Source: Escherichia phage YZ1
Direction: 5' to 3' (one strand)
Sequence record: NC_047927.1
DNA length: 38,823 nt
Position numbers and translations under genes: made by a program. Positions 557-5,089 of the stretch are shown in pieces. Every line of letters begins with the position of its first letter. Within the stretch, counting starts at the first letter, position 1. The notes under the pieces were generated by a model, which saw only the letters and a program-made list of their open reading frames with translations, was not told where the DNA came from and searched no databases.

Positions 557-593
557 TTGACAAGATGTACCGACTTAAAGTAGTATGTACCAC
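557..593 (+). promoter_or_regulatory. Host sigma70-type early promoter (T7 A3-like): -35 TTGACA, 18-nt spacer, -10 TAGTAT
   Basis: TTGACA at 557-562 and TAGTAT at 581-586; the flanking sequence (GTAGACAGCCTGATAAGTC upstream, GTACCACAT downstream, GCTCTTTAACAATCTGG further on) resembles the T7 early promoter region as I remember it. Confidence 0.6.
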
Positions 594-716
594 ATCAACA
601 CGAAACAACGGTGACGACCAACACTGAAATGGTCTACCTGAAGTCCTCTGACTGAAGGGAATGCTCTTTAACAATCTGGATAAACTCTTAATGTGCGCCG
701 ATAGCGACTAACTACA

Positions 717-746
717 GGGTCTTTGAGTCTACATCTGAAGGCCCTG
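717..746 (+). promoter_or_regulatory. Stem-loop in the early leader (AGGGTC ... GGCCCT), possible RNase III site analogous to T7 R0.3
   Basis: 6-bp stem with one G-U pair immediately upstream of the first early gene; layout resembles the T7 R0.3 region. Confidence 0.3.
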
Positions 747-777
747 ACTGATAGTCACTAACTAAAGGATAAACAAG

Positions 778-1302
778 ATGAAACTGATAGGCAAAGGCAC
801 GTTCACTAAGTGCTACCTGAAGGACTGCGGGAAGCGTGTAATTCTGGTCTCTTCAGACCCAATCAAGGAGTGTATGGCGTGGGGATGGTTCCCTGAGTCT
901 CCACTGTTCCCTGAAGTCAAGATGATTGAGGTGGGCACGTATGAGATGGACTACATGCCACCAACACGAGGACTCAAGGCGCATTTAGATGACGACCAGT
1001 GGCAACTCTATCAGGTGCTGCGAGATTGCTTCTCACGGTCTCCGGTATTCTCTCGACCTGCTGACCTGTATCACAAGTGGTACGAGATATTCCAAGCTGC
1101 ACACGACAGGTCTGAGACCGAGACTGTGCGGGAAGGTCTGATGGATGTACTGATGGCGCTGGACGCTTGCGCTAACTTCGGGTCTGACATTCAGTTTGAG
1201 ATAAGCCCACGAAATGTACGGGCTGTGAACGGCAAGCTGATACTAGTGGATTGTTTCTTCCTTGTGTCCAAGCTGCAAGAGGTGAGGGCGTCAAGATGGT
1301 AA
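778..1302 (+). CDS. gp0.7-like protein kinase-domain protein (174 aa, minimal, lacks the T7 C-terminal host shut-off domain)
   Basis: Glycine-rich loop LIGKGTFTKCY near the N-terminus and a C-terminal segment EISPRNVRAVNGKLILVDCFF that aligns with the catalytic/activation segment of T7 gp0.7 ([23 protein letters not shown], from memory). First gene after the early promoter. Confidence 0.5.
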   Translation: MKLIGKGTFTKCYLKDCGKRVILVSSDPIKECMAWGWFPESPLFPEVKMIEVGTYEMDYMPPTRGLKAHLDDDQWQLYQVLRDCFSRSPVFSRPADLYHKWYEIFQAAHDRSETETVREGLMDVLMALDACANFGSDIQFEISPRNVRAVNGKLILVDCFFLVSKLQEVRASRW

Positions 1303-1445
1303 CTTATGGTCTCTGCCAGCACCACGTCACCAACGCCCGGCTTATGGTCAAGACCGGGCAGTTAAACCACGATGCGACTATGCGCCACCTGAAAGCGGTC
1401 TACGAGGGCCGCAAGCGCATACACGACAGTTTGCACGCTAAGTGA
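1296..1445 (+). CDS. Hypothetical 49-aa protein, start overlapping the kinase stop (alternatively a frameshifted continuation of the kinase gene)
   Basis: ATG at 1296 overlaps the stop of the 778..1302 ORF; GGTGAGGG upstream; open frame to 1445. Confidence 0.25.
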   Translation: MVTYGLCQHHVTNARLMVKTGQLNHDATMRHLKAVYEGRKRIHDSLHAK

Positions 1446-1512
1446 TAAACGAGAGGTCATCTAACTGATAGGTGGCCTCAAAGATTACCACTTAAATTGA
1501 TAGGGGTTAACT

Positions 1513-1617
1513 ATGAGCACTGCAATCATCTGGACTATCTCAGGCTTCGTAGCGTGGGGAATGTTTACTCTAGTCTGCAAACTACCGGTCCTTACTCAAC
1601 TGTTATGGGGCTTATGA
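1513..1617 (+). CDS. Hypothetical 34-aa hydrophobic protein (MSTAIIWTISGFVAWGMFTLVCKLPVLTQLLWGL)
   Basis: ATG at 1513 preceded by AGGGG; single predicted transmembrane helix; its TGA stop overlaps the next ATG (ATGA coupling). Below the ORF-track size cutoff. Confidence 0.3.
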   Translation: MSTAIIWTISGFVAWGMFTLVCKLPVLTQLLWGL

Positions 1618-1817
1618 CTATGAGTCTTGCACTATTGATAGCCATAGGCTATGGACTTATCGCCTACGTGCTGGTGAGAGACACCAACAAGGCACGTAAA
1701 GTCTACAAATTCAACTACGTACGTCTGGGCCGCTGGACTGTACGCCAACCTAACGGACGATTCATGCGCAATTTAGCGAACGTCTGTGATATAGCAACTC
1801 TTGGGAGCAAACTGTAA
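1614..1817 (+). CDS. Hypothetical 67-aa membrane protein (N-terminal TM helix, basic C-terminus)
   Basis: In-frame part of ORF 1497..1817; ATG at 1614 overlaps the upstream stop; hydrophobic segment SLALLIAIGYGLIAYVLV. Confidence 0.35.
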   Translation: MTMSLALLIAIGYGLIAYVLVRDTNKARKVYKFNYVRLGRWTVRQPNGRFMRNLANVCDIATLGSKL

Positions 1818-2080
1818 TGAAAACCACCGTATACACTCATAAAACATCAAGCCGTAGACGCATGGAGCAAGTCCAGCGTGATGAGTTCTTACACCGTCGA
1901 ATGATGGCAGAGGGCCATAAGTCCGAACTGAAGTGTCTGGCGTATGGTGGACGACCAATCACCGACGATGGTAAACTTCTGGTATCAGGCTGGAAGGCGA
2001 TAGACCAAAGGTCAACCATCAAGCACACGACTCATGGTGACTTCAGTCATCTTCACGCTAACCCTCTGATATGCAAGTAA
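1817..2080 (+). CDS. Hypothetical early protein (87 aa)
   Basis: ORF with TAATG stop-start overlap with the preceding ORF; no recognisable motif. Confidence 0.45.
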   Translation: MKTTVYTHKTSSRRRMEQVQRDEFLHRRMMAEGHKSELKCLAYGGRPITDDGKLLVSGWKAIDQRSTIKHTTHGDFSHLHANPLICK

Positions 2081-2085
2081 TTCTG

Positions 2086-2108
2086 ACTTAACTATCACTA
2101 TAGGACTC
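2086..2108 (+). promoter_or_regulatory. Phage RNAP promoter upstream of the RNA polymerase gene
   Basis: TTAACTATCACTATAGGACTCA; matches the window consensus TAAACTATCACTATAGG with predicted +1 G at 2103. Confidence 0.7.
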
Positions 2109-2177
2109 AAGGTCTAAGACTCCAAGTGAAAGACCAAAGAGACTTTAAGTGAAAGACTAATAACAAGGACTTTAAGT

Positions 2178-4859
2178 ATGAGCGTCATCTCTATTGACAA
2201 ACACGACTTCTCTGATGTGTCGAACGCCATTGAGCCGTTTAACCTGCTGGCTGACCACTACGGGCAAGACCTTGCAGTCAAACAGCTTCAGCTTGAGCAC
2301 GAGGCATACACTGAAGGCGAGCGACGTTTCATCAAGAACCTTGAGCGCCAGACTGAGCGCGGGGAACTGGCAGACAATCAGGTCGCCAAGCCTTTGATGC
2401 AGACTCTGGTGCCTAAGATTGCGCAAGCAGTCAAGGAGTGGCACGAAGGCCAAGACGGGAAGCTGTCAACCTCTCGTCCTAGCGTAGCGTTCATCATGTT
2501 GAGCACTGAAGAGAAGGCCGTCAAGGACCGCTCTATGCGCATCTCCTGTGAGTCCGCTGCGGTTATCATACTCAAGGTCATACTCTCCAAGCTGGTCAAG
2601 CCTGAAGGGATACCGATTACACCGATGGCCTCCGCGATAGGTCGCACACTTGAGGACGAAATCCGCTTCGGTCGCATCCGTGACAAAGAGAAGGAGCACT
2701 TCAAGAAGGCGATAGCTGAGAACCTGAACAAGCGAGCTGGGGCATCCTACAAGAAAGCCTACATGCAAGCGGTCGAGGCGTCCATGCTGGAGCAAGGCCA
2801 ACTGGAAGATGCATGGGGGACTTGGAGTCCTACAGAGGCTGTCCACGTTGGCATCAAGATGCTCGAGATTGTCATCCAGTCAACACAACTGGTCGAGCTT
2901 AAGCGGTACGGTGCTGGTAATGCAGCGGCTGACGTAGAGATGGTCCACCTGTCAGACTTCTGGGTCAAGAAGATGACACAACGAGGATTCAGCCTTGCGG
3001 GTATCGCTCCAGTCTACCAGCCTTGCGTCGTTCCACCTAAGCCGTGGACTGGTGTCGTAGGTGGTGGGTACTGGGCCAAAGGTCGCAGACCGTTACCAGT
3101 GATTCGCTTAGGGTCTAAGTCTGCGGTAGCACGTTATGAAGACGTATACATGCCTGAAGTCTATGACGCTGTGAATATCATCCAGAATACACCATGGAAA
3201 GTGAACAAGAAGGTATTGGACGTGGTGAACATGGTCGAGAAGCTGAACAACACGCCTATTGACGACATCCCTCAGATGGAACCGCTGAAGCCTGAGGACT
3301 ATGCTGGTGAGACCGAGGAGGAACTCAAGGCATGGAAGAAGACTGCTGCTGGTATCTATCGCCGCGAGAAGGCCAGACAGTCACGCAGATTATCACTGAG
3401 CTTTATCGTTAACCAAGCAAACAAGTTCTCTCAGTTCAAGGCCATCTGGTTCCCGTACAACATGGATTGGCGAGGTCGTGTCTACGCTGTCCCGATGTTC
3501 AACCCTCAGGGTAACGACATGCAGAAGGGTCTCCTGACTCTGGCAGTCGGCAAGCCTATTGGTGCTGACGGTTTCAAATGGCTGAAGGTCCACGGTGCAA
3601 ACTGTGCGGGTGTCGATAAAGTCACCTTCGAGGAGCGCATCAAGTGGGTGGAAGACAACCACGAAAACATCATGGCTGCTGCTAAGGCACCGATGGATAG
3701 TATTGAGTGGTGGGGCAAGTTAGACTCTCCGTTCTGTTTCCTCGCGTTCTGCTTCGAGTATGCTGGCGTAATGCACCACGGCCTGTCTTACTCCTGCTCG
3801 CTGCCGATAGCGTTCGATGGGTCCTGCTCTGGTATTCAGCACTTCAGTGCGATGCTTCGTGACCACATCGGTGGACATGCAGTAAACCTGACGCCATCCG
3901 GTAAGGTACAAGACATCTACCGCATTGTGTCTGACCGCATTGAGGAGGAGCTTAAAGTCCTGCTGATTAATGGTACTGACAACGAGATGGTCACTCACGA
4001 GGATAAGAAAACTGGTGAGATTACCGAACGTATCAAGCTGGGGACACGAGAGCTGGCCCGTCAGTGGCTGCAATTCGGTATGTCTCGCTCGGTCACTAAG
4101 CGCTCGGTCATGACTCTGGCCTACGGGTCGAAAGAGTATGGGTTCGCCGACCAAGTGTTCGAAGACACCGTGATGCCAGCGATTGACTCCGGTAAGGGAG
4201 CTATGTTCACTGAACCAAGCCAAGCGTCTCGCTTCATGGCTAAGATGATTTGGGAAGCTGTGAGTGTGACCGTAGTTGCTGCGGTTGACGCGATGAAGTG
4301 GCTTCAAGGTGCTGCCAAGCTGCTGGCTGCTGAAGTGAAGGACAAGAAGACTGGAGAAATCCTGAAGCCTTGCCTTCCGGTACACTGGGTCACACCTGAT
4401 GGTTTCCCGGTCTGGCAGGAATACCGCAAGAAGGATACCACTCGTCTGAACCTGATGTTCTTAGGGTCATTCAATCTTCAGCCTACCGTCAACAGAGGTA
4501 CGAAGAAAGAGCTGGACAAGCACAAGCAGGAGTCAGGCATTAGCCCGAACTTCGTCCACTCACAAGATGGTAGCCACCTCCGCAAGACTGTAGTCCACAC
4601 TCACCGCAAGTATGGCGTGATGTCGTTCGCAGTGATTCACGATAGCTTCGGGACCATCCCGGCTGACGCTGAGTATCTGTTCCGTGGCGTCCGTGAGACG
4701 ATGGTCGAGACCTACCGAGACAACGATGTGCTGCTTGACTTCTACGAGCAGTTTGAATACCAGCTTCACGAGAGCCAGCGCGATAAGTTGCCAGAGCTTC
4801 CGAAGAAAGGTAAACTGAATATCGAAGACATCTTGTCTTCAGATTTTGCATTCGCTTAA
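2178..4859 (+). CDS. Single-subunit DNA-directed RNA polymerase (T7 gene 1 homolog, 893 aa)
   Basis: Full-length colinear similarity to T7 RNAP: N-terminal DFSD...IEPFNLLADHYG, conserved blocks such as VHWVTPDGFPVWQEY and PNFVHSQDGSHLRKTVV, and the C-terminal FAFA. Confidence 0.97.
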   Translation: MSVISIDKHDFSDVSNAIEPFNLLADHYGQDLAVKQLQLEHEAYTEGERRFIKNLERQTERGELADNQVAKPLMQTLVPKIAQAVKEWHEGQDGKLSTSRPSVAFIMLSTEEKAVKDRSMRISCESAAVIILKVILSKLVKPEGIPITPMASAIGRTLEDEIRFGRIRDKEKEHFKKAIAENLNKRAGASYKKAYMQAVEASMLEQGQLEDAWGTWSPTEAVHVGIKMLEIVIQSTQLVELKRYGAGNAAADVEMVHLSDFWVKKMTQRGFSLAGIAPVYQPCVVPPKPWTGVVGGGYWAKGRRPLPVIRLGSKSAVARYEDVYMPEVYDAVNIIQNTPWKVNKKVLDVVNMVEKLNNTPIDDIPQMEPLKPEDYAGETEEELKAWKKTAAGIYRREKARQSRRLSLSFIVNQANKFSQFKAIWFPYNMDWRGRVYAVPMFNPQGNDMQKGLLTLAVGKPIGADGFKWLKVHGANCAGVDKVTFEERIKWVEDNHENIMAAAKAPMDSIEWWGKLDSPFCFLAFCFEYAGVMHHGLSYSCSLPIAFDGSCSGIQHFSAMLRDHIGGHAVNLTPSGKVQDIYRIVSDRIEEELKVLLINGTDNEMVTHEDKKTGEITERIKLGTRELARQWLQFGMSRSVTKRSVMTLAYGSKEYGFADQVFEDTVMPAIDSGKGAMFTEPSQASRFMAKMIWEAVSVTVVAAVDAMKWLQGAAKLLAAEVKDKKTGEILKPCLPVHWVTPDGFPVWQEYRKKDTTRLNLMFLGSFNLQPTVNRGTKKELDKHKQESGISPNFVHSQDGSHLRKTVVHTHRKYGVMSFAVIHDSFGTIPADAEYLFRGVRETMVETYRDNDVLLDFYEQFEYQLHESQRDKLPELPKKGKLNIEDILSSDFAFA

Positions 4860-4873
4860 CAGGAGAGAGAGTT

Positions 4874-5089
4874 ATGAAATTTGCACACAAGCAGACTGGC
4901 GTTAAGGGTGGGACTCAAATCGTGACCGTAACAGAACACAACGGCAAGGGTCTGGTGAAGACCACGGTCATTCCTACCGAGATGTCAAAGCAGCTTAACG
5001 TCCCATTCAAGACCCTCGTCTATCTTGTGGAATCCAGCCACGAGAAATACCTGAAAGACGCAGTGACCAAGCTGGAGCAGACCAAATGA
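4874..5089 (+). CDS. Hypothetical protein (71 aa) immediately after the RNAP gene
   Basis: ORF with a good AGGAGAGAG SD 5-7 nt upstream of the ATG. Confidence 0.55.
   Translation: MKFAHKQTGVKGGTQIVTVTEHNGKGLVKTTVIPTEMSKQLNVPFKTLVYLVESSHEKYLKDAVTKLEQTK

Follow-up and report, generated by a model that had tools for sequence, protein, structure and literature searches.

The 38,823-bp genome of Escherichia phage YZ1 (NC_047927.1) was analysed over its full length, which is called the window in what follows. It is the complete genome of a T7-group podophage of the genus Kayfunavirus (K1F-like), and its first 2.2 kb have matches in 233 phage records, the best being Escherichia phages U8, SD6, and TH16 with about 92% identity. 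The present work concerns the early region, in which five open reading frames (ORFs) on the plus strand, A–E, of 174, 49, 34, 67, and 87 amino acids (aa), respectively, are preceded by a host promoter and followed by the first phage promoter (Table 1). The first of them, ORF A, has a kinase-like fold and occupies the slot that in other members of the genus is taken by the anti-restriction protein Ocr (gp0.3).

Table 1. Features of the YZ1 early region (window positions)
Feature	Positions	Strand	Remarks
Host (sigma-70 type) early promoter	557–587	+	TTGACA, 18-nt spacer, TAGTAT; 10/12 matches in consensus scan
Leader with stable hairpin, then ribosome-binding site of ORF A	690–777	+	Fold −24.5 kcal/mol, z = −3.0 versus shuffles
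ORF A, 174 aa, minimal protein-kinase-like, phrog_11084, gene 0.3 slot	778–1302	+	
ORF B, 49 aa, T7 gp0.4 homologue	1296–1445	+	Start overlaps ORF A stop (ATGGTAA)
11-bp hairpin in the B–C spacer	1453–1479	+	Fold of 1443–1512 is −20.2 kcal/mol, z = −3.5
ORF C, 34 aa, hydrophobic, one predicted membrane helix	1513–1617	+	
ORF D, 67 aa, T3 gp0.6 family (phrog_2385)	1614–1817	+	Start overlaps ORF C stop (ATGA)
ORF E, 87 aa, gp0.38 of EcoDS1 (phrog_7066)	1817–2080	+	
First phage-RNA-polymerase promoter, ACTTAACTATCACTATAGGACTC	2086–2108	+	23/23 bases identical to the annotated 'phi' promoter of EcoDS1
Gene 1, T7-type RNA polymerase, 893 aa	2178–4859	+	Annotated as RNA polymerase in all relatives

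The early region and its first gene slot

The content of the slot was compared in 26 early regions, out of roughly 220 Kayfunavirus genomes. Eight of them have ORF A followed by the gp0.4 homologue, while in eleven the same homologue is preceded by true Ocr (PF08684, E value 1e-26). Another six carry a 244-aa kinase resembling the T7 kinase (T7K) and have neither Ocr, nor ORF A, nor a gp0.4 homologue, and the last one, CR8, has Ocr, the gp0.4 homologue, and T7K. K1F and EcoDS1 also carry Ocr. Ocr and ORF A are found together in none of the 26 regions, and this clean alternation within the genus is a new point of the present analysis. Ocr is a trigger of the PARIS defence system, and an escape from PARIS by the phages with ORF A could account for the alternation. 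The 244-aa kinase of the six regions (loci L099 and L101–L105) consists of the kinase domain without the C-terminal shutoff domain.

DNA homology between YZ1 and the Ocr-bearing phage UKE1 extends over positions 1–784 and is resumed at 1295, the intervening 785–1294, i.e., ORF A, having no counterpart. Since the homology with Ocr-bearing relatives breaks at the borders of ORF A, it is this gene that replaces Ocr, and not the four small ORFs, as the original prediction had it. ORFs B, D, and E occur in 179–241 phage records whatever occupies the first slot, and at the fixed position of ORF C either of two alleles is present. B–E coexist with true Ocr in relatives and are thus not its replacement.

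A leader element of 19–20 nt (CCTGACTGATAGTCACTAAC) stands ahead of every gene in the slot in every relative, be it an 81-aa gene, ORF A, or Ocr; in YZ1, the leader boundary element CTGACTGATAGTCACTAAC is located at 744–762 and is present in a single copy in the window. With this element repeated before each slot gene, homologous recombination would offer an easy way of exchanging the cassettes.

Two further observations concern the same borders. Phages U8 and UKE1 have an extra 81-aa gene (phrog_10124) before the slot and Penshu1 has a 62-aa gene (phrog_336), which are absent from YZ1. The junction of the extra gene (743–784 in the window against 1020–1062 and 1337–1378 in locus L001) falls within the repeated leader element, and the lack of the 81-aa gene in YZ1 is consistent with a deletion by recombination between the leader repeats. 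An IMG/VR contig of 40,291 bp (L095/L118, positions 1310–2359) shows a tandem partial duplication of the cassette, in which the full A is followed by 28 codons from the start of B, by residues 71–174 of A once more, and by the full B.

The surroundings of the slot are those of a T7-like early operon. The host promoter agrees in 28 of 31 bases with an annotated host RNA polymerase promoter of EcoDS1, and a weaker counterpart of the first EcoDS1 host promoter is seen at about 418–452. Because 557–587 matches the EcoDS1 host promoter and 2086–2108 its first phage promoter, ORFs A–E are assigned to a host-transcribed class I block, in agreement with the earlier view of this region as an early region and a sensible place for host-takeover and anti-defence functions. 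The earlier placement of the five ORFs is also reproduced here; of the span 560–2170 considered at that time, however, 560–777 is a noncoding leader and not a gene. Ribonuclease III sites R0.3 and R0.5 are annotated in T3, and likewise in T7, where YZ1 has the hairpins of 690–777 and 1453–1479, which are probably the counterparts of R0.3 and R0.5, respectively. The DNA of the second hairpin is conserved across all relatives examined. Judged from these elements, the early operon has the T7/T3 layout, with promoter, hairpin, slot 0.3, gene 0.4, hairpin, small membrane genes, and gene 1 following one another.

In comparisons with related Kayfunavirus loci, the ratio of nonsynonymous to synonymous differences (pN/pS) is 0.12 for A, 0.26 for B, 0.54 for C (four comparisons only), 0.31 for D, and 0.36 for E, and the ORFs recur in 80, 179, 34, 241, and 222, respectively, of 50,697 phage records. 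The low pN/pS values, together with the recurrence in tens to hundreds of records, indicate that all five are real genes under purifying selection and not chance frames.

The absence of Ocr and of the S-adenosylmethionine hydrolase (SAMase), which had been noted before, is borne out by all searches. None of the five ORFs matches either protein in scans of Pfam, NCBIfam, and PHROG, although the Ocr profiles PF08684 and phrog_2568 do detect Ocr in relatives (E values of 1e-26 and 8e-51, respectively). A tblastn comparison of all six frames of the whole window with T7 Ocr, K1F Ocr, T3 SAMase, and the T7 and T3 kinases returned only noise (E ≥ 0.38), with nothing at E ≤ 1 for T3 gp0.3 (SAMase). 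The acidic composition of a DNA mimic is seen in none of ORFs A–E, the calculated isoelectric points (pI) being 5.9, 10.0, 8.0, 10.7, and 9.9, respectively, compared to 4.05 for T7 Ocr, which has a charge of −28. A diverged Ocr in the place of ORF A was also considered and was rejected, as BLASTP against the UKE1 Ocr gave no alignment.

The other candidates for a highly diverged Ocr or SAMase would be ORFs B–E. No evidence for this was found, and the idea rests only on the fast divergence of small early proteins; B, D, and E fall into other families, B–E are basic or hydrophobic with pI values of 8.0–10.7, and they are found side by side with true Ocr, as described above. We consider this very improbable indeed. 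The absence of Ocr is ordinary for a Kayfunavirus, and families known from T7, T3, or EcoDS1 account for three of the four small ORFs.

It should be mentioned here that YZ1 might have no active anti-restriction at all and rely on site avoidance and host choice, in which case ORF A would be a takeover factor unrelated to defence, acting for instance on transcription, RNases, or translation. Actions of this kind were the first to be described for T7 gp0.7. The window contains no EcoKI sites (5.3 expected) and no EcoRI sites (7.4 expected), and GATC and CCWGG are strongly depleted, with 4 and 6 occurrences compared to about 153 and 80 expected, respectively. The six Kayfunavirus early regions that lack both Ocr and ORF A point in the same direction. 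However, EcoBI, EcoAI, and EcoR124I sites are present 11, 11, and 15 times, which is at or above expectation, and the avoidance of type I sites is therefore not general. Moreover, ORF A takes exactly the slot of Ocr and is found near Ocr in other phages, and the six phages having neither of them carry the T7K-like kinase. The restriction-site counts do not settle the role of ORF A, and we regard a defence-unrelated role as doubtful, though by no means far-fetched. In the same counts, the window was found to be enriched in CAGCAG (74 versus 30 expected) and AGACC (152 versus 98 expected).

Outside the genus, ORF A homologues are found in phages of Enterobacteria, Pseudomonas, Aeromonas, and Cellulophaga. 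In the Dickeya Aarhusviruses, the homologue is an early-region gene preceding that of the RNA polymerase, is annotated as a serine/threonine kinase, and stands alongside a T7K gene. The homologues of the Klebsiella Molineuxvirinae are likewise early and upstream of the RNA polymerase gene, whereas those of phages Seurat and phiPsa374 are located among small genes without known role. In four contigs, the longest of 77 and 141 kb, the homologue is found two genes downstream of an Ocr homologue. These contigs (L136, L137, L139, and L140; 9 to 141 kb) have, at about 2400–5000, a one-strand cluster of T7 gp0.6A, Ocr, and ORF A homologues with further small genes, which has the appearance of an island for host takeover or anti-defence in phages not belonging to the T7 group. 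Among 185,579 bacterial and archaeal species genomes there were only two matches to ORF A, and the family is thus essentially confined to phages. No conserved partner gene hinting at a pathway was seen in the genomic contexts examined.

Fold, motifs, and possible function of ORF A

The ORF A family has at least 139 members in a large protein collection, none of which carries a Pfam domain, and the only PHROG match of ORF A is phrog_11084. The AlphaFold2 model, obtained with 45 diverse members, has a predicted local distance difference test score (pLDDT) of 96.3 and a predicted template-modelling score (pTM) of 0.90. It shows the bilobal kinase fold, with a five-stranded N-lobe and one helix, three helices, and two short β hairpins, such that the earlier description of the first gene as kinase-like is confirmed by both the fold and the motifs discussed below. 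The protein ends about 15 residues past the last conserved Asp, just after the DFG-type strand, and the model contains neither an activation segment nor the substrate-binding helices of protein kinases.

The best Foldseek matches in the PDB are the APH(2'') and corramycin phosphotransferases, with E values of 4e-4 to 5e-3, and CK2, CDK2, Rio2, and the choline and ethanolamine kinases are also among the matches. Among viral models, the family itself comes first and is followed by the T7-kinase family, namely A0A7L7SMK1 (E 1.6e-5) and a 'Protein kinase' of phage NahiliMali (6e-5). The former is listed as a T7K homologue (PMC13645617).

These matches raise the question of whether ORF A could, in the manner of aminoglycoside or choline kinases, phosphorylate small molecules rather than proteins, the substrate being a metabolite, a toxic compound, or a signal nucleotide. 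The nature of the best PDB folds, the missing activation segment and protein-kinase substrate-binding helices, and the presence of the family in phages of unrelated hosts would fit such a role. However, ORF A has no large helical substrate-binding C-terminal domain as in the APH and choline kinases, and the template-modelling (TM) scores to their structures are only about 0.4. T7K-type protein kinases, which are equally minimal, are among the viral folds closest to ORF A once its own family is set aside, and the genomic contexts offer no partner gene pointing to a pathway. We therefore judge an action on small molecules to be quite unlikely.

Across the 45 diverse members, G5, G7, K30–E31, E141, N146, and D158 are invariant. 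The two glycines belong to a Gly-loop, G5-K-G7-x-F-T, and the spacing E141-x4-N146-x11-D158 equals that of the HRD-x4-N catalytic loop and the DFG Asp of kinases, the residue equivalences being derived from hhalign and from the spacing rather than from a structural superposition. On the basis of the model, ORF A is assigned to the kinase-like superfamily by its fold, and catalysis is probable. A literature search for the phrog_11084 kinase-like family found nothing, and the recognition of phrog_11084 as what appears to be a minimal, non-canonical kinase-like family is new here.

The best explanation that we can offer for the early region, and one to which we would give an even chance, is that ORF A acts as an early phosphotransferase on host or defence proteins. 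A cassette exchange at the repeated leader element would have brought ORF A into the slot that Ocr occupies in K1F, EcoDS1, and most relatives. The protein, an ATP-dependent phosphotransferase, would appear within minutes after the DNA enters the cell, and its targets for phosphorylation would be host proteins, with those involved in defence or in nucleic-acid handling as the most plausible ones. It would then be a stand-alone counterpart of the T7 gp0.7 kinase without the shutoff domain, and a functional alternative to Ocr. ORF B would meanwhile block cell division by binding FtsZ, as T7 gp0.4 does, ORFs C and D are predicted to be small inner-membrane proteins, and ORF E would belong to the core early proteins and would probably take up its fold on a host partner. 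Phage kinases have been found to disarm several defence systems in the cases of T7K (PMC13645617) and JSS1_004 (PMC12345140).

A number of observations weigh against a phosphotransferase active in anti-defence. The β3 lysine of kinases is replaced by Val24 in ORF A, and the family has Lys at this position in about half of its members and Val, Glu, Asp, Asn, or His in the others. The position of the catalytic base is an invariant Glu (E141) and not an Asp. In the sequence libraries, searches of Pfam (with all 45 members), NCBIfam, and PDB sequences gave nothing meaningful that would identify ORF A as a kinase. Furthermore, a shared slot is a matter of cassette exchangeability and not of functional equivalence, and the alternation with Ocr is not general beyond Kayfunavirus, ORF A being present together with T7K in the Dickeya phages and near Ocr in larger phages.

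The first of these points raise the possibility that ORF A is a pseudokinase, i.e., a protein with the shape of a kinase that binds nucleotides or serves as a scaffold and puts a host target out of action by binding to it, with no phosphotransfer. We know of no characterised kinase that has a Glu base and lacks the β3 Lys, and a pseudokinase is conceivable for this reason; the failure of any kinase hidden Markov model to match ORF A can be read in the same way. However, the Gly-loop, E141, N146, D158, and K30 are invariant among members that are only 30–50% identical, and this invariance, in combination with the pN/pS of 0.12, is what one would expect if the active site is functional. It is also known from the WNK-type kinases that the kinase lysine can be relocated, and the invariant K30–E31 pair on the helix following β3 might substitute for the β3 Lys in ORF A. 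We thus consider a pseudokinase unlikely.

The phosphotransferase reading can be carried one step further. The phrog_11084 proteins may represent a new class of stand-alone minimal phage kinases of about 170 residues, with a Glu base, a relocated lysine, and no regulatory or targeting domain, which are expressed first and inactivate one or several host defence systems by phosphorylation. This more specific proposal is put forward only tentatively. If it is true, the Kayfunaviruses would choose among three interchangeable first-line counter-defence modules, namely Ocr, a mini-kinase, and a T7K-like kinase.

The studies on T7K and JSS1_004 (PMC13645617, PMC12345140) used the T7K profile to delimit the phage kinase family, and this profile is not matched by ORF A. 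A second, smaller kinase-like family that is swapped with Ocr in near-identical genomes offers a natural isogenic comparison. ORF A is in addition a compact candidate, with only 0.5 kb, both for testing and for the engineering of phage host range.

The small ORFs B–E and other features of the window

The small ORFs had been described as matching neither Ocr nor SAMase, which is correct, and as unassigned, which does not apply to B, D, and E, as these have relatives in T7, T3, K1F, or EcoDS1. In the case of ORF B, BLASTP against T7 gp0.4 gives 39% identity over 41 aa (E 1.7e-5), both proteins reciprocally match phrog_5058, phrog_7202, and phrog_25044, and hhalign of the ORF B family against the gp0.4 family gives a probability of 96.3% and an E value of 1.7e-9 over 42 columns of the 49 residues. 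The gene follows slot 0.3 directly in all 19 Kayfunavirus loci that carry it, and it corresponds to gp0.35 of EcoDS1 and to gene 0.4 of CR44b. By homology, ORF B is a member of the T7 gp0.4 family and, being a gp0.4 homologue, it can be placed in a family of known function, since T7 gp0.4 binds to FtsZ as an inhibitor (Kiro et al. 2013, as cited in PMC9372555 and PMC13423816).

This assignment bears on K1F, whose infection mislocalises FtsZ and leads to filamentous cells; K1F was said to "lack" gene 0.4, and the peptide responsible was not identified (2022, PMC9372555). K1F does have an unnamed 49-aa gene at 1623–1772, the product of which (YP_338091) is 78% identical to ORF B and which is the obvious candidate for the K1F FtsZ inhibitor. 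The gp0.4 homology thus names a specific 49-aa candidate for what was left as an open question in PMC9372555.

ORF C begins with an ATG that follows AGGGG at a fixed position behind the hairpin. Two alleles start from this same ATG in the relatives, MSTAIIW... and MNIGYWV..., which look unrelated, and the distant phage CR8 keeps a copy of ORF C with 47% identity. The ORF is gene 0.41 of CR44b, has no PHROG match, and reaches a hydropathy of 1.82 in its best 19-residue stretch. It is located at the position of T7 gene 0.5, with no sequence similarity to it.

We have also considered a longer ORF with a GTG start at this site (118–124 aa in U8 and Penshu1; 1449–1817 in the window) as the real gene. 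It was rejected because its N-terminal half is the conserved DNA of the hairpin and the ribosome-binding site, and because it is interrupted by stops or frame changes in relatives, whereas the ATG from which the short hydrophobic ORF starts is the same in every case. GTG-start ORFs of 47 to 124 aa beginning VIDERSSTDRWPQRLPL... are found in locus L001 at 2089–2463, in L003 at 2050–2406, and in L108 at 1493–1636, and are likely an annotation artefact. The real genes at this site appear to be a membrane peptide of 29–34 aa, in two alleles, and then gp0.6.

ORF D matches phrog_2385 with an E value of 1.3e-31, the same PHROG that T3 gp0.6 matches with 9e-30, and tblastn between the two gives 40% identity over 63 aa (E 5e-7). 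It has an N-terminal membrane helix (residues 3–21, hydropathy 2.32, compared to 1.95 for T3 gp0.6) and a basic tail, and it is the gp0.6 of K1F and EcoDS1. These similarities place ORF D in the T3 gp0.6 family. In UKE1 (locus L002, 2568–2769), the gp0.6 homologue is split by a frameshift near 2666–2668 and is annotated as a 39-aa stump.

ORF E, a basic protein, matches phrog_7066 with an E value of 1e-42, is 75% identical to gp0.38 of EcoDS1, and immediately precedes gene 1 in all 26 Kayfunavirus early regions compared. A profile search of 1.84 billion representative proteins returned only 14 clusters, all of them small phage proteins except for one long protein, which was matched in seven short stretches and was taken as spurious. 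The C-terminal 40 residues are strongly conserved, and the 20–50 residue N-terminal extension present in many relatives is missing in YZ1. The AlphaFold2 model, obtained with 36 homologues, has a pLDDT of 51 and is unusable; such a poor model, despite the conserved C-terminal 40 residues, suggests that ORF E folds on a partner.

A weak BLAST match between the basic tail of ORF D and residues 267–293 of T7K gave rise to the idea that ORF D or ORF E might be a detached T7K shutoff domain. It was abandoned, as the hhalign probabilities are 2% and 0.7%, respectively.

Upstream of the early genes, an ORF of 73 aa at 339–560 was rejected as a gene, since it has no family match, overlaps the host promoter region, and resembles T7 and T3 only at the DNA of their promoters A1/A2. 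Its counterpart is annotated as a coding sequence in relatives, e.g., at 336–551 in Penshu1, and is probably noncoding. Annotations that are probably wrong in several deposited genomes of the genus are also corrected by the present analysis. Short direct repeats (AACCTACAGTCTAACT and variants of it) form an array at 205–305, just inside the left end; such arrays near the left end are typical of the concatemer-junction region in T7-like genomes. Nine exact CACTATAGGR cores, all on the plus strand, are located at 2096, 5174, 6865, 16586, 19410, 20409, 24749, 32025, and 38235. They are presumably phage-polymerase promoters, the first one being upstream of gene 1 itself.

Comparison with known systems

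Among known systems, the kinases T7K and JSS1_004 (phrog_2828) share with ORF A the position in the early genes of T7-group phages and a kinase core of about 170 residues without an activation segment. The motifs of the two can be lined up, with G-x-G-x-F-[ST] for the Gly-loop, F-[DE]-x4-N for the catalytic loop, and the Asp of metal binding 12–13 residues further on, and relatives of T7K are among the nearest viral folds. In the hhalign comparison with the T7-kinase domain alignment, 135 columns are collinear, and GKGxFT is paired with GNGHFS, FEISPRN with FDMHSGN, and LLDC with ITDP. However, the match is not significant (E 0.011, probability 4%), and the two proteins belong to separate PHROGs. 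ORF A has neither the 68-residue N-terminal extension of T7K nor its C-terminal shutoff/DNA-binding domain, and it contains Glu in place of the catalytic Asp, the motif DCF in place of DPV, and no β3 Lys. Since the hhalign match is not significant and both the β3 Lys and the catalytic Asp are missing, ORF A is placed outside the T7K family, and the presence of both genes in the Dickeya phages implies that they are not simple orthologues.

The Ocr of T7 and K1F (gp0.3, PF08684, phrog_2568) resembles ORF A in its genomic setting, as it comes first or second in the row of genes behind the host promoters, is immediately followed by the gp0.4 homologue, and has the same leader element at its border. 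The proteins themselves have no resemblance in sequence or composition, Ocr being a DNA mimic while ORF A has a kinase-like fold. Effector kinases of the HopBF1 type and the small kinases Rio and Bud32 score no better against ORF A than ordinary kinases do and show no sequence relation to it, and their biology is different, HopBF1 being a type III effector and Rio/Bud32 being involved in ribosome biogenesis.

For the neighbouring genes, T7 gp0.4 is similar to ORF B in length (51 versus 49 aa) and in its position after slot 0.3, but the identity is limited to the 39% given above, and gp0.4 is acidic (pI 4.75) whereas ORF B is basic. T3 gp0.6 shares with ORF D, besides 40% identity, the same build of a membrane helix followed by a basic tail.

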